Virus record (IMG/VR): IMGVR_UViG_3300048813_000140
Coordinates: 1-50,701 of that record
Source of the DNA: a virus
Lineage: Duplodnaviria; Heunggongvirae; Uroviricota; Caudoviricetes
Length of the DNA stretch: 50,701 bases
Reading direction: 5' to 3' (one strand)
Each line of letters starts with the position of its first letter. The stretch's first letter is position 1. The notes under the pieces are model-generated. The model was not told the origin of the DNA. It worked only from the letters and a program-made list of their open reading frames with translations, and did no database searches. This document shows, in pieces, positions 1 through 50,701 of this stretch. Both the position numbers and the translations under genes were made by a program.

Positions 1-2
1 AC

Positions 3-2102
3 CGCCCAGAACAAATCAAATGATGCGGTGTTCCAATCGGCCAAATAAAGTTTTCCAGCAGTTTCACTGTTTGAAAACATACCCCAACGCAGTGCATAAG
101 TAGTGTTTGCCGCAAGAGTTGCTGCACCACCATAAATTGCGGTCAATTGTAGAGTGGGAGCTACTAAGTTTCCAGTTAAAGTTATATTGGTTGCAAGTGC
201 TGTTCCAGTAAGAGTCGGACTAGCGCTAAAAACAACATTTCCAGTACCAGTCGTTCCGCTTACGGTAGTGCCTTGAATTTTTGCGATAGTGGACGCTAAA
301 GACTGCGATCCAGAAGCGGCAGAAGTCGTAACATCGCCAGTCAATTGATTAATTGCGTTGACCGTAACAGCGCCCTGAGCACCATTTACAGAAGTAACGC
401 CAGCGGCAGGAGTAACGAGTACCCATTTAGTACCATTATAGATAACTAAATCGCCAATTTGGAAATTGGTCATTGAAGGATCGGTCAATCCAGCAACGGT
501 TCCAGAATCGGCTGCGCTTACCCAATAAGTGTAACCAGTAACGCCAGTGCCGTCGACTAGTGTTGGAGTATTTATGTTAGGATTCCAATTGCCTTGGAAT
601 TCCATAAGAGTAGCAGGTAACTGAGAAAGAGGAACTTTTCCGCCACCATCTAATGATGCAACACCACTTGCGGCGCCGACTTCAGATTGAGTAACATACG
701 TTGCGGATAAATCAGGAATGTCAGCAGAAACCAACGCTCTAAAGGTAGGTTGAGCGGCAGAACCCGTAGCAGGACCAGCAAAAACTTTATTTGCAGTTTG
801 AGTTGCCAAAGTCTGCGTCAGAGTCCCAGACGAAGTGATGGGCGAACCGGTGATATTGTATATGGGAGTCGTAGAAGCGTCAGCAAAAGCTACTGAAGTA
901 ACGGTACCACTAGTAATAGTGGCCCAAGTCATTGGTGAAGATCCGCCACCACCAGAAACTAACGCTTGGCCAGAAGTACCTGCTGTTGCGGGTAAATTGA
1001 AGTTATACGTAGCAGACGTTGAAAGAGCCTGAATGTTAGTTAAGAAAGCGTTCGTACTATTGGCTATCTGTAGAATTCCATTGACAGACGACGATACACC
1101 TAGTTGTATGCCTGATGTGGACCAAGCTAATTGTTGGTTTCCGGCTGAATCAACCAAAATTCTAGTTTGATAATTAATTGAAACGTGCGCGGCATTATCC
1201 AAAAGAAGACGATTGGTTATGTCTTGGGCTACATTACCGGAAGGATCATAAATATTTCCGACAAAAAGATGATTCCAAGAAAATCCTGCAGCGCCTAAAT
1301 TAAATGTTGCTGAAGCGTTGGGGAGCAAGCTTTGGTTTATGGCCGTAGATGTTAAGTTAGAAAGAGCAGTATTTGCACCAGTAGCGGGAGCGGGTTGCCA
1401 AGAAGGTATGCCAGAAACTACGGTCAATATTTGACCAGTGGTTCCGATGGGTAACGCAGAAAGCGTATTTGAAGCGCTGGCATAAAGTGTGTCGCCGGTC
1501 GTATAAGAGGTCAGACCTGTTCCGCCATATTGGGGACCAATTGGAGTTGCAGTCCATATACCACTCGTGATCGTACCGATGCTGGCCAAGTTTGACAGAG
1601 TAGTTAGGGTAGTATTCGTAGTAGCCGTAATGTTTGAGGCTGTTCCTGAAGTGTTCGAAGTAATCGTCGAAGGAATATCAGCAGAAACCAACGCTCTAAA
1701 GGTAGGTTGAGCAGGTGATCCAGATCCGGGGCCAGCAAATACTAAGTTTGCATTCTGATTACTTAGAGTAAAAGTCAAAGTTCCAGCGCTAGTTACTGGG
1801 CTTCCAGAAATCGAATATATCGGGGTAGTCGAACCATCAGAAAGGGCTACGGAGGTTACGTTACCTGCGGATGCCCACGTTAAGTTTCCAGACCCGTCGT
1901 TATGCAGAAAGGTATTCGCACTACCTTGGGCAGCCGGTAAAACGACCGAATAGGTCGTAGTCGTCGGATTTGCCGTCATGGTTAGCGTACCAGAGGTAGA
2001 GCCGTTAAATTGTGCTCCGCCCAAAGATACTGTGTTTATGGCACTATTCTCAGTTCTTTGAACGCCGCCGCTAATAAATGAAAATAAATTAATAATTGAC
2101 AT
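3..2102 (-). CDS. Tail fibre protein, partial (about 700 aa, C-terminus beyond the left edge; not in the supplied ORF track)
   Basis: Manual translation from ATG at 2102 (AAGGGT upstream): MSIINLFSFISGGVQRTENS...; the frame was consistent where checked down to position 3. Gly/Ser/Thr-rich with fibre-type motifs AGP.SG..AQPTFRALVSADIP (twice), ASLDGGGKVPLSQLP, GDLVIYNGTKW and VTSVNGAQGAV. Confidence 0.85.
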   Translation of the reverse strand, partial: MSIINLFSFISGGVQRTENSAINTVSLGGAQFNGSTSGTLTMTANPTTTTYSVVLPAAQGSANTFLHNDGSGNLTWASAGNVTSVALSDGSTTPIYSISGSPVTSAGTLTFTLSNQNANLVFAGPGSGSPAQPTFRALVSADIPSTITSNTSGTASNITATTNTTLTTLSNLASIGTITSGIWTATPIGPQYGGTGLTSYTTGDTLYASASNTLSALPIGTTGQILTVVSGIPSWQPAPATGANTALSNLTSTAINQSLLPNASATFNLGAAGFSWNHLFVGNIYDPSGNVAQDITNRLLLDNAAHVSINYQTRILVDSAGNQQLAWSTSGIQLGVSSSVNGILQIANSTNAFLTNIQALSTSATYNFNLPATAGTSGQALVSGGGGSSPMTWATITSGTVTSVAFADASTTPIYNITGSPITSSGTLTQTLATQTANKVFAGPATGSAAQPTFRALVSADIPDLSATYVTQSEVGAASGVASLDGGGKVPLSQLPATLMEFQGNWNPNINTPTLVDGTGVTGYTYWVSAADSGTVAGLTDPSMTNFQIGDLVIYNGTKWVLVTPAAGVTSVNGAQGAVTVNAINQLTGDVTTSAASGSQSLASTIAKIQGTTVSGTTGTGNVVFSASPTLTGTALATNITLTGNLVAPTLQLTAIYGGAATLAANTTYALRWGMFSNSETAGKLYLADWNTASFDLFWA

Positions 2103-2639: not shown

Positions 2640-5597
2640 TTAGAAGATATCCCATCCAGTGCCGTTGGAGATTAACGAATAAGAAACGTATTGAGTAGTT
2701 ACAGCGTAGCTGGCGTTACCATCTATCAAGTCTGTACCATTCGCCACTATGTTCATCGCATTTGTGGTCGAATCAACCTTTTTCATGTAAAAAACTTGCC
2801 CCGTAACAGACGATGCTGCTGGTAAATTAAAGGTAACTGAGTTAGAAGTACAATCAGCCCTTAAGAAACAATCCGTAGAAAGTACTGAATACGTAGCACC
2901 AGTTTTTGTGCTGATACTTACTGGTCCACCTAAAGCGTCTTGACCGGTCATTCCAGCTGGCCCTTGCGGTCCTGGAGGTCCTTGCTGACCACCGCCACCG
3001 CCACCACCACCACCTGCGAATGTAAACTCTAATCTATCTCCAACCACCAAAGGTCTTTGGAGTTCAATCTGAGTTGCGGGAGCGCCGACAGATCCGACTT
3101 CGGTGTAATCATCTCCAACGGTCATCTTTTGACCGTTTAAGAACATTTCTAATTTTCCATATCCAACCACATAGTGAACGGCTGGATCGCCAGAAAGTCT
3201 GGAATTGTTTGGCAATGTTATCAAGGTCAACGATGCGATTGGTCCCGTAAGAGAAGTGGGAGGAGTAGCGCCAGAGGCAACTATCGTAACGGTCTCATCG
3301 TATCCAGGCTGAATCGAGGCTGAAATCAAGCTAGCAATTACGTCATCTATCTCTTTGATAGCAAGCGTTAAATTTTGACCATCCTGAATGGAATAATTTC
3401 CTTGCCCAGTTCCTGCCTGAATAACAGACATAGCAAAAGGAGCAGAAATATTTATATTTGAAGGTGCGGTAGTTAACCCTGCAGAATTATTGACTACAGT
3501 TACTACGTTTCCTACAGAACTTGCTGTAAAATCGTTGAAATAAGTGCTATTGATCAACGTAACCAATGAAGAGGCAGTTTGTGTTGAAGTCTGACCGGGA
3601 ACAATGTCCCATGGCAAGCCTATCGCGTTAGCCAAAGGCGTAGGATCTACACCCGTACCATTGTAATTCACCCAAATATAATATTGCCGATTACTTCCAG
3701 AAGAGAATAAGTAGGCATATTGATTGGATGTCGTCATAGTGCTGGCAGCGCCAGTTGTTATGCTTAAAATTTCTTGCAATGCGCCAGGATACACCGTCGC
3801 TGTGTAGTCTGGAGCCGTATCGCTTTCCGATGGAGATCCAATGTATTGAAGTACGTTATCGAGTTGAGGTCCAGAAAGTTCTTGTATGTCACCTTGTTGT
3901 AATTCAGCGCCCAAGAATTGCACATAAACTCTAGGAGTCGATCCACCATCATCAGATCTAAAAAATAACCAAATGACATTCTGATTAATTGGAACTAAAG
4001 ATCTGTCTGCCAGTACGATATCTCTGGGAGTTCCAGTAGATAGGGGTAAAGTATATGTTCCATAAGCGTAAACACCAGGGACACCAGCTGCGGATTGATT
4101 GGCGACTACGTATTGGCCTGTCAATGTTACCGTGAAAGAATTGTTTACGGTCTGAATTTGATAATAATTGGCCGTAGTATCGCTGTAAGCTCTTATCCAG
4201 TCACCGGGCGATAGGCCAGTAGTCCAGGGAACACTGCCTACGGATACGACGGTCGTAGTGCCAGGAGATCCTGCATGAGTAGTGAAAAGTAAATTTGGAG
4301 CAACCTGAACATTTCGCGTAAGATTTATGTATGCGACTTCATTGTTGGCTAATGTTACTGAGTTACCGGTCGGATTCTCAGCAATTTGATAGTCTAAGCT
4401 CGACCCAACTATTTTGAAATATATCTGACCATCGCCAGGAGGGTTACTTGCCCAGTTGATCTGACCAGCTTGAGTTATCTGTCCTGCAGAATAAAAAGAT
4501 ACCATGACGCCAGTTGTCGTAGCGGTAGCTACACCAGACATAGTGACGGTAGTTCCTACGATATTTATAATAGTAGTAGCTGTGGGTATTCCAGTACCCA
4601 TAATGAGTTGACCAATAGCCAGTCCAGTCGTAGATGCTAGATTGGTCAACTGATTCGTAGAAACAGTGATATTGCCCATAGTATTAAGAACAGGCGTAGA
4701 GTTAGGCAAGATACCATGAGAAATGGTACTATTGCCAGTAAAAATCGTATTGCCCAGATCTTCTCTCAAAAGAGATAAAGAAGAGTTCGAAGAAGGAGAA
4801 AACCAGTAAGGGGTACCCTGTATCTGAGCCAAGGAGGTCATTACTGCATTCATCCAGTCCTTCAGATTGGATAGCATTTTGTCGCCACCCTCAAAAGGAT
4901 TTACTGAATTGGACGTAGAAGTGTTAGGATTTGCGTTCCTGCCTTCTGTCTGAGCGGTCCATGGGTATTGATAAAATGAATTTGGAGAAGATCCGCCAGT
5001 ACCAAGACGGAAAAGTAGCCATCTAGCGTCCGTGATTGATAGTACGTTATTCCCGCTATCGGTGGTAACGATTGCAATTGGTAAAATATTTGCTGGCCAT
5101 ATGGTAGTGGAGATACTGAGCGTATACTCTAAGATCTGCGCCCTAGGAGCGATAATGTCTGTTTCGGTATTTGATGTCGGGTCCCACAAGATAACTTCGG
5201 CGTCAGTAGAGGGATCTAAAAATCTAGAATAGTCTAGACCAACGTAGTTCGTAGAATTTGCGGAAAATGATCCAGTTACGACATTGGGGTTAGTTACGCT
5301 ATTTAGCGCTTGAAGAGGAGTTCCGGTAGGCACCATGAAGACGGTACCCGATTGACTAGCCGCAATATGGAATATAGCACCTGGGTCAACTATGACCTGT
5401 AAGTTGTTAGATGCGCCACCGATGGCCCCTGTCATGGATAACTCAAACCCACGAATAAAGTAACCCTGAGAAGTTCCGGTAACAAAAGCCTGAATTAATG
5501 TATCAAAATCTGCTGAAACTGATGATTCTATAGATCTTAGGTCGGGAAGATCAACCCTTTGTTCTGACAGGAAATTTACGCGGCGCAGTACACTCAT
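2640..5597 (-). CDS. Tail fibre / baseplate-attached fibre protein (985 aa)
   Basis: T/S/G-rich beta-type sequence; poly-Gly followed by collagen-like GPPGPQGPAGMTGQD; C-terminal TFNLPAAS..GQVFYMKKVD..NIVANGTDLIDG domain typical of phage fibre tips. Confidence 0.75.
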   Translation of the reverse strand: MSVLRRVNFLSEQRVDLPDLRSIESSVSADFDTLIQAFVTGTSQGYFIRGFELSMTGAIGGASNNLQVIVDPGAIFHIAASQSGTVFMVPTGTPLQALNSVTNPNVVTGSFSANSTNYVGLDYSRFLDPSTDAEVILWDPTSNTETDIIAPRAQILEYTLSISTTIWPANILPIAIVTTDSGNNVLSITDARWLLFRLGTGGSSPNSFYQYPWTAQTEGRNANPNTSTSNSVNPFEGGDKMLSNLKDWMNAVMTSLAQIQGTPYWFSPSSNSSLSLLREDLGNTIFTGNSTISHGILPNSTPVLNTMGNITVSTNQLTNLASTTGLAIGQLIMGTGIPTATTIINIVGTTVTMSGVATATTTGVMVSFYSAGQITQAGQINWASNPPGDGQIYFKIVGSSLDYQIAENPTGNSVTLANNEVAYINLTRNVQVAPNLLFTTHAGSPGTTTVVSVGSVPWTTGLSPGDWIRAYSDTTANYYQIQTVNNSFTVTLTGQYVVANQSAAGVPGVYAYGTYTLPLSTGTPRDIVLADRSLVPINQNVIWLFFRSDDGGSTPRVYVQFLGAELQQGDIQELSGPQLDNVLQYIGSPSESDTAPDYTATVYPGALQEILSITTGAASTMTTSNQYAYLFSSGSNRQYYIWVNYNGTGVDPTPLANAIGLPWDIVPGQTSTQTASSLVTLINSTYFNDFTASSVGNVVTVVNNSAGLTTAPSNINISAPFAMSVIQAGTGQGNYSIQDGQNLTLAIKEIDDVIASLISASIQPGYDETVTIVASGATPPTSLTGPIASLTLITLPNNSRLSGDPAVHYVVGYGKLEMFLNGQKMTVGDDYTEVGSVGAPATQIELQRPLVVGDRLEFTFAGGGGGGGGGQQGPPGPQGPAGMTGQDALGGPVSISTKTGATYSVLSTDCFLRADCTSNSVTFNLPAASSVTGQVFYMKKVDSTTNAMNIVANGTDLIDGNASYAVTTQYVSYSLISNGTGWDIF

Positions 5598-5599
5598 AA

Positions 5600-6691
5600 C
5601 TATTTAATTTTCCTATATTTATTTGAACTTACTGTTTCTGATATTTCCGTAAATTCTTCTGTAGAAATATCTGTTTTTTTAGACCATATCCAATTTTTAT
5701 GGGATAGATTTTTGTATATAACGCCGTTGGGCTTTTTTGTTGATGCACTATTTATAACTCTGCTAACGCATCCAACCGTAAATCCATCTTTCTTTACGTC
5801 ATTTACGCAAGTGTATTTTTTAATTTCTTTAGTTAGTATATTCATCCCTATAACTGGGATCAATAGAGGTTTTTGGGGTTGTTTGGGTTTATTTTGTATT
5901 TCGTATATTAATACATATCGTTCTTCTAGTAATAACTTACAGTTGTCCACGTCAGCAAAAACCCATACAAAATCATTGGATGTTTTCGATGTTTTGAATT
6001 GAGTCGCGCGACCTATTATCGTACTGTTAAATCCACTATAACTCGCTTCTTTGGCAGATTTAAATCGTACAATTTCTCCAGTTTTCAGCGACTTTCCCAG
6101 AATAGGGCGTTCATTGCGAACTTTTCCTCTTTTTGCGTGTACGCATCTTTCTTGTAGTTTTTCTAAAGAAAATTCTTCTTTTGAAATCCAAACCCATCCA
6201 CCAGTGGACGCAGATGTGTGGGATGGCCTATTTTTATTAAAACTGGTGAATTTTAGTACACATTTTCTGACACACTTTTCGTTAAATCCATCCATCTTAG
6301 TATCCATTGCCGATTCGTATTCTTTTATTTCGCCAGTTTTAATGCACATACCAACTATAGGTTTTTTATTAGCTTCTCCTATGATTCTCTTGGTGTCCTT
6401 ATCGTGCGTGTGTCCTTTGCCACCCTCTGTCAGATTATAAAGATTTAGGCTATTCTCAATAATATTTTGCTCTTCTTTGTCTAATTCTTCTATAGTGTTG
6501 ACGGTTTTTATTACCTCAAATCTAAAGGCTGACTCTCCATATTTAGTCCAGGCAGCCTGCAGATACCTGTTTTTGTGTTTTCCTGCTCGCAAACAATATA
6601 AATGCTCCCTAAACCTAATTGTCTCAGGTCTTGTTGTCTGTCCTACATATTTGTGTCCGCTTTCAATGTGGACTATTTGGTAGATAAGCAT
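5600..6691 (-). mobile_element. Free-standing GIY-YIG homing endonuclease with repeated NUMOD1-like DNA-binding modules
   Basis: N-terminal LIYQIVHIESGHKYVGQT..R..H and NRYLQAAW.KYG..F.FEVI; repeats KPIVGMCIKTGEIKEYES, RPILGKSLKTGEIVRFKS and PVIGMNILTKEIKKYTC. Confidence 0.9.
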
Positions 6692-45500: not shown

Positions 45501-45911
45501 TTAATAATCCTCGCTTGCAGGATAACCATAGAGTTCTTCCTGTATTTTTCGTTTTCCTCGAAATTTATACAATCCCTCAGTGACTATGTGTGGATCTACG
45601 CTTTCTACCTTTTCTGGGTCAGGCTTTGGTAGTTTGGCTGCTGCGGGTCTAAGTCTTGCCAACTGTTCATTGGCCATCTGAATCTGCCATTCAGCGCTTG
45701 CTATCTTTTCTGGGTCAGGCTTTGGTAGTTTGGCTGCTGCGGGTCTAAGTCTTGCCAACTGTTCATTGGCCATCTGAATCTGCCATTCAGCGCTTGCTAT
45801 CTTTTGAGCTATATCAAGAGCTGCGAATTGCTCAAGACTCAAAGAGAACACATAATCTCTCTCAGAAGCTATCCTAGCGTAAGCGTTGTCGATATCTTCA
45901 TTTCTTCCCAT
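45501..45911 (-). CDS. Hypothetical protein with internal 32-aa tandem duplication
   Basis: ATG 45911 is preceded by GGAG; KIASAEWQIQMANEQLARLRPAAAKLPKPDPE occurs twice. Confidence 0.7.
   Translation of the reverse strand: MGRNEDIDNAYARIASERDYVFSLSLEQFAALDIAQKIASAEWQIQMANEQLARLRPAAAKLPKPDPEKIASAEWQIQMANEQLARLRPAAAKLPKPDPEKVESVDPHIVTEGLYKFRGKRKIQEELYGYPASEDY
45609..45805. repeat. Perfect 96-bp tandem duplication
   Basis: Copies at 45609-45704 and 45705-45800 are identical; CTTTT recurs at 45609, 45705 and 45801. Confidence 0.95.
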
Positions 45912-46119
45912 CTGATTGCTCCTTTTTTGGAAATCCACATATTTCGTACATTTTCATAAGTTCAACTCGATGACCAGTAGCATCTTCTAGTCCATATCCA
46001 AGCTTTGTAGCCTCACGTTTTAGTTCTTCCATGGCCACATCTATGAGCATGTCCTCACCTTCACATTCAACTACAGAGGTGATCTCAAATCTTACCTTAG
46101 CTACGTACTTCATTTTCAT
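45898..46119 (-). CDS. Hypothetical protein (73 aa)
   Basis: Track ORF packed in the operon. Confidence 0.6.
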   Translation of the reverse strand: MKMKYVAKVRFEITSVVECEGEDMLIDVAMEELKREATKLGYGLEDATGHRVELMKMYEICGFPKKEQSDGKK

Positions 46120-48326: not shown

Positions 48327-48595
48327 GTCACTCAATTTAGTCGGACGTCCAACTCGACAGTGCACGCGTCGGAGGTCTCTCATTTAATTTAGTCACGAAT
48401 ATAGTCAATGAATTCAATCATTTAGTTTGTCCCAAAACGAGACAGCATTTCGCAGTTCTCGTCTGTCACGAATATAGTCAATGAATTCAAATAGATATAG
48501 ATACACAGATGCCCGACGAGTTTACGTCAGGCATTTAAGGCGCGGTCAGTGAGTGAGGCGCGTATATAGTAGTAGTTTCGACTAAATTGAGTGAC
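48327..48595. repeat. 17-bp perfect inverted repeat pair
   Basis: GTCACTCAATTTAGTCG (48327-48343) and CGACTAAATTGAGTGAC (48579-48595). Confidence 0.9.
48392..48490. repeat. 26-bp direct repeat pair
   Basis: GTCACGAATATAGTCAATGAATTCAA at 48392-48417 and 48465-48490 (period 73). Confidence 0.9.
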
Positions 48596-48942: not shown

Positions 48943-49458
48943 ATGTACGGCATACACGTTGAATCAAGTAGCATGACAGGTCGCCTCATGTCTAATAAGC
49001 GTTATAATGAGTTGAGACTTCAAATGTCAACGGGCGAGTATGGCACGCATACCGCTATTAAAATTAAGACCTCAACTCTAAGTGTTATAATGAAGAGCGA
49101 AACGTCAACTCATTGCTATTTAGAACTAAATGGCGACTCATGTAACGTGACTCTTCGTTTCGACAGAGGTGATACCGCGCGTATATGCGGTTATCCTCAA
49201 GAATGGCTGTTACACGATCAGACAGACCCATATGACCATGATAGCGATACAACGGGCGCCGATCTTTTTGAATGCGATACGATACCTGAACATGTCACTC
49301 AATATGTCTCTAAGGATTTAGAGTGCTCCATACTCCAATTGCTATTAAAATGCGTTACTAAACAGTTTCAAGACCCCTCATGGTCCGACTCATGCGATGA
49401 CGCGACTCGACAAGACGTTATTAATAAAATCGAGAATGCTATTAAGGCGTTGTCATGA
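48943..49458 (+). CDS. Hypothetical protein (171 aa)
   Basis: AAGGGG ribosome-binding site; first plus-strand gene after the strand switch. Confidence 0.75.
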   Translation: MYGIHVESSSMTGRLMSNKRYNELRLQMSTGEYGTHTAIKIKTSTLSVIMKSETSTHCYLELNGDSCNVTLRFDRGDTARICGYPQEWLLHDQTDPYDHDSDTTGADLFECDTIPEHVTQYVSKDLECSILQLLLKCVTKQFQDPSWSDSCDDATRQDVINKIENAIKALS

Positions 49459-49538
49459 GTCAACTGTTAACTGCAATCGTGGCATCATATGGCGTGGGTC
49501 TCGTTATCGGGACTTTAATCTGTAAACTATTAATATAA
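49455..49538 (+). CDS. Putative 27-aa single-TM peptide
   Basis: MSQLLTAIVASYGVGLVIGTLICKLLI; ATGA overlap with the upstream gene. Confidence 0.45.
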   Translation: MSQLLTAIVASYGVGLVIGTLICKLLI

Positions 49539-49661
49539 CTAAATAAAGTGAGGTATATCATGGTCGAAACCGACGACAGTCGAGTATGGTGAGGCGTATT
49601 CAAACATATATGGTGACTAAATACTTAATTTTATTAATAAACTTTAAAATAAGGGGTCTAT

Positions 49662-49925
49662 ATGTCTACAGAGACTAAATTGCAATATATTGAATACGTT
49701 CGAAACCAACTCAAGACCATCGACAAGACCGATGCCGTTGCGTCGTACGATACGGGTTTCGGTCTTGATATAGTCGATACGCATTTAGGCGACGAAGTGC
49801 ACTGTATGGACGTCCGATGTCACTCAATATTAAAAATCAGACCGCCCAATATTCAAGGTAATGAATGGTATACGGCGTGGAAGCACGCGAAACGCATGGT
49901 GCGCACTTTTTGCAAACAATTATAA
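49662..49925 (+). CDS. Hypothetical protein (87 aa)
   Basis: Same AAGGGGTCTAT leader as the gene at 48943. Confidence 0.75.
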   Translation: MSTETKLQYIEYVRNQLKTIDKTDAVASYDTGFGLDIVDTHLGDEVHCMDVRCHSILKIRPPNIQGNEWYTAWKHAKRMVRTFCKQL

Positions 49926-49932
49926 GTACTTA

Positions 49933-49959
49933 GGCTGTCTCGTTTTGGGACAGCCTTTT
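49933..49959 (+). terminator. Intrinsic terminator-like hairpin
   Basis: GGCTGTCTC-GTTTT-GGGACAGCC followed by TTTT, 8 nt after the stop at 49925. Confidence 0.65.
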
Positions 49960-49980
49960 GCAGTTATCGTCTGTAGCATA

Positions 49981-49993
49981 TAACTAATTGATT
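49981..49993 (-). promoter_or_regulatory. IHF consensus site
   Basis: AATCAA-TTAG-TTA matches WATCAA-N4-TTR. Confidence 0.6.
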
Positions 49994-50007
49994 TTATTAA
50001 TATATGC

Positions 50008-50238
50008 TGTGTGACCATGCTGTGTGACCATGCTGTCACGGCACTGTGTGACCATGCTGTGTGACCATGCTGTGTGACCATGCTGTCACGGCACTGTGTG
50101 ACCATGCTGTCACGGCACTGTGTGACCATGCTGTCACGGCACTGTGTGACCATGCTGTCACGGCACTGTGTGACCATGCTGTGTGACCATGCTGTCACGG
50201 CACTGTGTGACCATGCTGTCACGGCACTGTGTGACCAT
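50008..50238. repeat. Two-unit tandem array: A=TGTGTGACCATGC (12 copies, last partial), B=TGTCACGGCAC (7 copies)
   Basis: Parsed order A A B A A A B A B A B A B A A B A B A(11 nt); no mismatches seen between copies. Confidence 0.95.
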
Positions 50239-50288
50239 ATGTTTGAAACTACTACTAATAGTGACATGAGGCACTTTTTGAGACAGTC

Positions 50289-50301
50289 TAACCTATTGAT
50301 T
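50289..50301 (-). promoter_or_regulatory. IHF consensus site
   Basis: AATCAA-TAGG-TTA matches WATCAA-N4-TTR. Confidence 0.6.
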
Positions 50302-50520
50302 TCTAAATATGGGATTCTCAATCAGGGATTTTGAAAAAAAGCCCATATTGCAAATGCCATGCCAACGTATCATAATGAGACATTCCAATCCAATAAGTCC
50401 CAGTATTGATCTAGGTTTGGGACTCTCACATATTCCAATGCTAATATACGACCTAGCATATTGCATAGAGTCTTTAGATATTCAGGTATCGTCAAGTATT
50501 AAGATTTTTGAGTTTCATAT

Positions 50521-50560
50521 GTATTTCATTGTATGTATTTCATTGTATGTATTTCATTGT
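50521..50560. repeat. 14-bp tandem repeat (about 3 copies)
   Basis: GTATTTCATTGTAT twice plus GTATTTCATTGT. Confidence 0.85.
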
Positions 50561-50701
50561 TTTTAGATTGAATTGTTCAATCAATTGCCCGTACGTCTAG
50601 GAATATATTTTGCGTTTACATAGTGTATAACATAATTAAAGTATATCCATTGTGGCGTACAAAACAATACAGAGTAGGGGAGTGGGTCTTTTTTGACTTT
50701 C

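Follow-up and report, generated by a model that had tools for sequence, protein, structure and literature searches.

In well-studied phages, long contiguous blocks of non-coding repeats are mostly replication or packaging sites, and long inert repeats are seldom retained in phage genomes. Iteron origins of phages include lambda ori with its O protein, SPP1 oriL/oriR with two box types and G38P, P4 ori/crr and T4 oriE. The lambda iterons carry dyads with a period of about 24 bp, and lambda ori, the T7 primary origin and T4 oriF/oriG are transcription-activated. At packaging sites, short-repeat arrays lie by the terminal repeat of the T7/T3 concatemer junction and hexamer repeats surround an IHF site in P1 pac; in many phages with terminal repeats, the ends are found at the start of the early-gene block. 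Two further systems are relevant here, namely tandem-repeat centromeres such as F sopC, R1 parC and the heptad arrays bound by omega protein, and the sigma-54 promoter architecture, in which an enhancer, an IHF site and a -24/-12 element follow one another, as in Pseudomonas Pu, Klebsiella nifH and E. coli glnHp2.

The locus described here lies in the window, which covers the initial 50.7 kb of the 175,837-bp record (G000) of an uncultured phage, one of a poorly known group of large phages from soil. About 200 bp are shared, with a few mismatches, by the two ends of this record (window 1-200 versus G000 175633-175837), so that the record is a circular assembly, although labelled linear, and consequently does not give the physical ends of the DNA; the mismatches in the overlap suggest population variants. 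Leftward genes extend up to 47812, two plus-strand genes, of 171 aa and 87 aa, form a small operon at 48943-49925, and a long plus-strand block of small early genes starts at about 51034. What separates the last two is a gene-free gap of about 1.1 kb (49926-51034) in which nothing gene-like was seen when coding potential was assessed. We regard this gap around 50 kb as the main control region of the phage and the repeat array inside it, beside the point of transcription divergence, as its most conspicuous element. The gap contains separate repeat blocks, comprising the A/B array, a 14-bp array of three copies and a duplicated 73-bp module, and the following features were located within the window:

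49934 to 49956, plus strand: hairpin GGCTGTCTC-GTTTT-GGGACAGCC, then CTTTTG (read from the sequence)
49961 to 50007, no strand: AT-rich left flank of the array, 47 bp, easily melted (stability windows)
49981 to 49994, minus strand: left copy of TAACNNATTGATTT; the minus strand reads AATCAATTAGTTA and matches the IHF consensus
50008 to 50238, no strand: A/B array with 11 full A units, 7 B units and 1 cut A (exact parse, Tandem Repeats Finder)
50289 to 50302, minus strand: right copy of TAACNNATTGATTT; the minus strand reads AATCAATAGGTTA and matches the IHF consensus
50350 to 50364, minus strand: sigma-54-type -24/-12 element TGGCATGGCATTTGC, then AATAT (strict match; 22.5 bits)
50441 to 50701, no strand: AT-rich, least stable part of the gap, running on to about 50910 beyond the window (stability windows)
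50518 to 50560, no strand: three exact tandem copies of the 14-bp unit TATGTATTTCATTG, 155-200 bp upstream of the minus-strand promoter element

The hairpin is terminator-like and would form the end of the 171-aa/87-aa operon and the left limit of the gap; its 19-bp core recurs exactly, in inverted orientation, at 48428-48446. The module of about 73 bp is duplicated from window 50675-50701 on to about 50820 (L002 4675-4820), each copy containing TAGGGGAGTGGGT and AAAATCATTTTTTTGG, and related words occur in a gap at 59.6 kb and in the relative L003 at 4680-4770. Elsewhere in the window, a 96-bp unit is repeated 2.2 times with 98% identity (45599-45805) and overlaps a minus-strand ORF (45501-45938).

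The array is a real, non-coding block of dense, dyad-bearing half-sites that is unique in the genome. It is built from unit A (TGTGTGACCATGC, 13 bp) and unit B (TGTCACGGCAC, 11 bp), and an exact parse from 50008 gives the order AABAAABABABABAABAB, amounting to 18 full units and 220 bp. The block ends in a cut A (TGTGTGACCAT, 11 of 13 bases), for a total of 231 bp without a single mismatch, and Tandem Repeats Finder reports it at periods 13, 24, 37, 50 and 61. The initial annotation had described 231 bp made only of A and B in the same order and had set CRISPR aside, and the parse bears out both statements, with only units A and B present and no unique sequence between them. Its count of seven GTGAC-N6-GTCAC dyads was likewise reproduced; all seven lie in the array and none elsewhere in the 175,837-bp genome, and a second dyad, GTCAC-N8-GTGAC, also has seven copies in the array. 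The GTSAC half-sites number 19 and are spaced by 11 or 13 bp. Calculated at 10.5 bp per turn, the dyads take up angles of 0, 274, 17, 120, 223, 51 and 154 degrees, which differ from copy to copy as expected from the earlier suggestion that the 24-bp period rotates successive dyads round the helix. The order BB is never seen (P = 0.034 for a random order of 12 A and 7 B), so the dyad-forming AB of 24 bp looks like the basic unit, to which extra A has been added.

Several readings of these units were tried and rejected. In a genome-wide search, exact A and exact B were found in the array only, and near-copies of A elsewhere numbered 4 against about 3.9 expected by our own chance estimate, which speaks against reuse of A or B as single operators. 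A coding reading fails on the missing ribosome-binding site, on the repetitive peptide and on the encoding of the repeat in shifting frames; one frame of the array is open because the stop codons of B fall in two of the three phases, and the ORF spanning the array has no protein relatives. GTSAC is not avoided genome-wide (observed/expected 1.02), contrary to a restriction decoy. An array of sigma-54 promoters was dismissed as well, given that GGCAC in B lacks a partner at -12 and that the score of the array is below 0 bits. A literature search for the dyad found nothing, and among CRP, Pho-box, LexA, WalR and NifA sites we know of none that fits the array in both spacing and sequence.

We favour, tentatively and with a probability of roughly 0.3, a reading of the array as an iteron-like protein platform that would probably serve as a transcription-activated origin. 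Nearly as likely is that the array is a young neutral minisatellite, in which slippage at shared CTGT junctions expanded a short seed that has no sequence-specific job. The junction C|TGT is common to every unit and partial units stand at both array ends, the pattern that slippage would leave. The complete identity of the units over 231 bp, their lack of reuse elsewhere in the genome and the presence of other perfect tandem arrays in this genome and in its relatives agree with this, and the lack of any divergence between units is equally compatible with a young and with a selected repeat. The dyad is statistically not compelling either: a 5-bp dyad has, by our estimate, a chance of about 0.2 of arising in a random 24-bp unit, so that the dyad alone is weak evidence for binding. 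Against a neutral origin speak the avoidance of BB, the rarity of long inert repeats in phages generally and, as set out below, the company that the array keeps.

The repeat could conceivably also be a product of assembly, considering that short-read assemblers can mis-build repeats. The longest repeat inside the array is 89 bp and both of its ends join unique sequence, so that the assembled order is the unique path at k of at least 99, which argues against an artefact. The real array may nevertheless be longer than the assembled one, if it was collapsed in assembly.

Both flanks of the array carry perfect matches to WATCAA-N4-TTR (49981-49993 and 50289-50301), each on the minus strand. The two co-oriented consensus IHF sites of the initial annotation thus exist, but they stand 14 and 50 bp from the array rather than the 15 and 51 bp given there. 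Matches to this pattern are more numerous in the window (10) than expected from shuffles (3.97 +/- 2.3); the 14-mer TAACNNATTGATTT has exactly two perfect matches in the window, the flanking pair. Since the two copies have this longer word in common, they are a related pair and not two chance matches, and a related pair that brackets the array is one of the observations against a neutral minisatellite. We consider the motifs putative IHF sites on the strength of their match to the consensus; no HU/IHF gene was found in the phage.

In terms of duplex stability, the array ranks within the most stable 1-3% of the genome's DNA and is adjoined by easily melted DNA. On its left, the 40-bp windows at 49961 and 49981 fall among the least stable 1.2% and 5% of the genome, respectively. 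On its right, no 150-bp window of the genome is less stable than the one that starts at 50759, about 520 bp from the array, and the window starting at 50497 ranks 4th. Part of this right-hand DNA is of a long promoter-cassette type also present at 59.8 and 78.9 kb, which makes the stability signal suggestive only and not special to the array. The cumulative GC skew is lowest, genome-wide, at 46-47 kb, which is the position of the strand switch, and per-gene skews show no clean replichores.

A feature newly recognised here is a strong sigma-54-type element that would read into the array. Using the strict pattern TGGCAY-N5-TTGC for a genome-wide search, we obtained 8 matches, all within 48.3-64.6 kb, compared with about 0.7 expected by chance in the whole genome (our own estimate). 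The strict match at 50350-50364, scored with a promoter matrix built from 13 other sites, has the highest minus-strand score in the genome with its 22.5 bits. It faces left, with 112 bp between the GC of its -12 part and the array; counted from the expected start, the right IHF-like motif would occupy about +37 to +50, followed by the array from about +100 to +330. It is the only sigma-54-type element within 700 bp of the array, the nearest plus-strand one being 740 bp away. That a strong promoter element is aimed at the array, in a region packed with regulatory motifs, again counts against a neutral minisatellite.

In this phage group, early gene expression seems to rely on promoters of the sigma-54 type. 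Shared words, GGTGTTATCCTATT and TTGACA...TATAAGTTCTACA, mark the upstream parts of the plus-strand promoter cassettes and show no relationship to A or B. Of these, TATAAGTTCTACA is found repeatedly in the early block, about 55-135 bp ahead of sigma-54-type elements and in many cases following TTGACA (positions 50844, 51929, 52000, 54635, 59975, 63246, 64539, 70513 and 70583); it may be a real activator site or a second promoter. In the relative L004 (IMG/VR 3300050138_000202), positions 3100-5900 are dense in sigma-54-type motifs, with 22 in 13.6 kb; they lie on both strands, some only about 30 bp apart (4192, 4221, 4251), a density that seems too high for all of them to be promoters.

These promoter elements bring up a regulatory function, in which the array would be a sponge or operator battery for a dimeric transcription factor of host or phage, or a downstream enhancer of the element at 50350-50364 helped by an IHF bend. 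The sigma-54-type cluster in the early region is dense and exclusive to it within the genome, and an IHF-like site, the putative bend site at 50289-50301, sits exactly between promoter element and array. Short tandem arrays also lie about 150-250 bp upstream of such elements in two relatives and here: L019 has TGTAAAGACT repeated 3.7 times in tandem and L003 has CTGTCGCAATA and TGTCCCAAT repeats, in both relatives within gene-free gaps and at a distance of 200-250 bp, and the third case is the 14-bp array of three copies. GTSAC pentamers are, moreover, enriched about 5-fold at 46-50 kb outside the array. However, the element is on the minus strand and faces the array, which places the array downstream and not upstream of the sole nearby promoter, and the 740 bp to the plus-strand promoter element do not provide a canonical enhancer position either. 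The cassettes' own upstream motifs are unrelated to A/B, no other promoter of this phage carries the dyad or the units, and no PF00158 activator (bEBP) gene was found in the phage genome. In addition, the dyads are distributed round the helix instead of on one face, and seven of them far exceed what an enhancer needs. With geometry and motif sharing wrong for a normal enhancer, we regard a regulatory array as unlikely, and the sigma-54 enhancer battery proposed initially is weakened by the downstream position, the unrelated cassette motifs and the missing activator gene.

Transcription from the minus-strand element might instead yield a non-coding RNA of about 400 nt, either a repeat RNA with multiple protein-binding sites or an antisense RNA to the 87-aa/171-aa operon. 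The element faces the array, no credible gene and no Shine-Dalgarno sequence follow downstream, the 14-nt flanking motif is present on the transcribed strand on both sides, and a hairpin stands at the far end. On the other hand, RNA folding of the array gave no defined structure, with a centroid unpaired in the array and much the same z-score on either strand (-2.8 and -2.6); stems could reach no more than 5 bp, Rfam has no match over the array and gap, no T run comes after the hairpin at 49934-49956 when the minus strand is read, and conservation of the array is lacking. We therefore judge such an RNA improbable. A further reading, equally speculative, would treat the array as the payload of a sigma-54-driven non-coding unit that acts early in infection as a copy-number-tunable DNA or RNA decoy for a dimeric host or phage factor. 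The unit would run from the 14-bp repeats through the promoter, flanking motif, array and second motif to the hairpin, and to our knowledge no phage decoy device of this sigma-54-driven repeat kind has been described.

Comparison with other genomes returned no counterpart of the array. An exact 24-mer and 21-mer of it were absent from the viral, metagenome and genome collections searched, from which records of this genome or of very similar ones may be missing, and blastn of the array against phages and plasmids gave no match. We also fetched homologues of the flanking genes together with their surroundings, namely L012-L015 for the 171-aa gene (48% identity), L027 for the 87-aa gene (60%) and L016-L025 for the first gene right of the gap (35-47%). 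None of L012-L025 and L027 has an A/B-like array beside the homologue, and the gene order there differs. The closer relatives L003-L005 (55-73% identity in the GP88-like protein) are without the dyad and the gap sequence, their contigs stopping inside the early region. As the early region is mosaic, absence of the array from relatives is weak evidence; such as it is, it favours a young neutral minisatellite, which would have no counterpart. The relatives' own short arrays in gaps indicate that repeat blocks are a habit of such control regions, although their sequences differ. In L018-L021, which carry a homologue of the first right gene, an in-frame 18-bp coding repeat, GTGTCTGGGAATGCTCGG, numbers 10 copies in each of two samples, 22 in another and no fewer than 15 at the end of a contig, and the gene that contains it is a copy-number-variable repeat protein gene.

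By its large terminase, the nearest cultured relative is Myxococcus phage Mx1 (31% identity over 88% of the protein), and for this reason the host may be a myxobacterium or a relative of one; myxobacteria are rich in sigma-54 activators. The first 135 kb of Mx1 contain neither a cluster of sigma-54 motifs nor a comparable array or a large gap. Several six-base palindromes are nearly absent from the whole genome studied here, with GGATCC at 4 occurrences against 73 expected, GAGCTC at 2 against 35, CGATCG at 0 against 31, GCCGGC at 0 against 27 and TCCGGA at 0 against 25 (counts pool both strands; expectations from a Markov model). This scarcity has the appearance of an evasion of host restriction and is a possible clue to the host.

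The array could also be a repeat block at or near the physical ends of the packaged DNA, comparable to the arrays that flank T7-type terminal repeats, or a docking site for the small terminase subunit. Several distinct repeat blocks occur in the gap, which lies at the start of the early block, where many terminal-repeat phages have their ends, and the circular assembly with its overlap of about 200 bp does not mark the true ends. Three independent assemblies of relatives (L016, L017 and L022) stop about 100 bp upstream of the first-early-gene homologue; we suspect that short-read assemblies break at repeated promoter cassettes there, none of which was identified at those contig ends, and a break at cassettes rather than at an equivalent array counts against packaging. 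Mx1 is virulent, with a genome of 169.6 kb that is similar in size to the one studied here, and a phage of its group has been reported to transduce (PMC6070905), which by analogy suggests headful packaging from a site. Conversely, no terminal repeat is visible, the array is absent in relatives, and the portal gene (121.4-123.3 kb) and the large terminase gene (G000 125359-127227; L031:11359-13227, minus strand) are about 72-77 kb from the array, a distance that weakens the packaging signal envisaged by the initial annotation. Taken together, we rank this reading behind the regulatory one and hold it to be unlikely too.

Gene content bears on partition and on replication alike. Perfect tandem dyad repeats resemble centromeres of the F sopC or parC type, and the array might accordingly be a plasmid-type partition site, as had been proposed. 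A search of the phage genome found no AAA_31 ParA, ParB_N, tubulin or integrase gene, the partition genes covered being AAA_31, ParB_N and tubulin. Furthermore, the nearest cultured relative is virulent (PMC6070905). Together with the missing activator gene, these absences weaken the partition and enhancer readings, and we consider a centromere and an assembly artefact, even jointly, very improbable. The broader idea of a binding array put forward initially is reasonable, if unproven, and its enhancer-battery and centromere options are weakened. As for the immediate neighbours, the 171-aa and 87-aa proteins have no Pfam or PHROG match to any function; the predicted structure of the 87-aa protein has no fold match, and that of the 171-aa protein is not reliable. 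For the first gene right of the gap, the predicted fold resembles a methyltransferase. The distance from the array to the replication genes is 80-110 kb, a PolIII-alpha type polymerase being encoded at 147633-150491. Other genes of the phage encode a minimal CRISPR polymerase (mCpol) domain protein (99712-101280), a GroEL-like chaperonin (127659-129431) and a large protein with an ice-binding-like domain (107757-109736).

Returning to the origin reading, we propose that a 24-bp AB unit with a 5-bp dyad was expanded in tandem in one lineage, with extra A units joining it, and that the uniformity of the units would stem from recent expansion or ongoing slippage. A dimeric protein that reads GTSAC half-sites would dock on the array in many copies, and the favoured role of such a docking platform would be that of the iteron block of a replication origin. 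The stable repeats with their protein coat would then have bendable IHF-like sites and AT-rich, readily melted DNA on their flanks, and transcription started at the neighbouring sigma-54-type promoter could cross the block and aid opening or priming. Protein binding, a replication start at this place and firing of the promoter are all steps that we infer. It is this combination of a stable block between meltable flanks, bend motifs and an incoming promoter that a transcription-activated origin fits best, and hence we placed it first. The direct repeats are clustered as in iteron origins, all 19 units being at a single site of the 175.8-kb genome. The AT-rich stretch by the repeats is a weaker point, as similar DNA occurs at other cassettes. 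Against an origin are the lack of an initiator gene candidate beside the array, the absence of DnaA boxes (no TTATCCACA with up to one mismatch in 49.9-51.05 kb), the missing conservation and the alternative explanations of the AT-rich and skew signals.

If the array is an origin or a host-factor decoy, it provides a handle on the start of replication or on host takeover in such phages, and its copy number would be a natural marker with which to follow populations; were it just a young minisatellite, it would be little more than a curiosity.

Set beside the described systems, the locus has elements of each. It has in common with the sigma-54 architecture a dyad repeat block, an IHF-consensus site and a strong -24/-12 element in this order within 360 bp, but here the promoter faces the block and so has it on the downstream side of the start; the dyads number seven rather than two or three, the phage has no activator gene, and the array motif is absent from its other promoters. 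With the T7/T3 junction and P1 pac it shares short repeats in a gene-free region by the first early genes, and the IHF-like motifs by the array recall the IHF site among the repeats of P1 pac. Unlike these systems, the locus has no known terminal repeat or cut site and lies far from the terminase genes, and the array units are longer and perfectly identical. The contiguous, near-identical direct and inverted repeats are like those of sopC, parC and the omega heptads and could carry a helical protein coat, whereas the phage, which appears virulent, has no partition ATPase, adaptor or integrase gene. From phage iteron origins the array differs in that its units are identical, abut without spacers and alternate irregularly between two types, that it has neither a nearby initiator gene nor DnaA boxes, that it is not conserved in relatives and that its promoter is of the sigma-54 type. 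It resembles them in being a unique non-coding block of direct repeats with internal dyads and a dyad unit period of about 24 bp, adjoined by AT-rich meltable DNA, accompanied by putative sites for a bending protein and, as we infer from the facing promoter element, entered by transcription.
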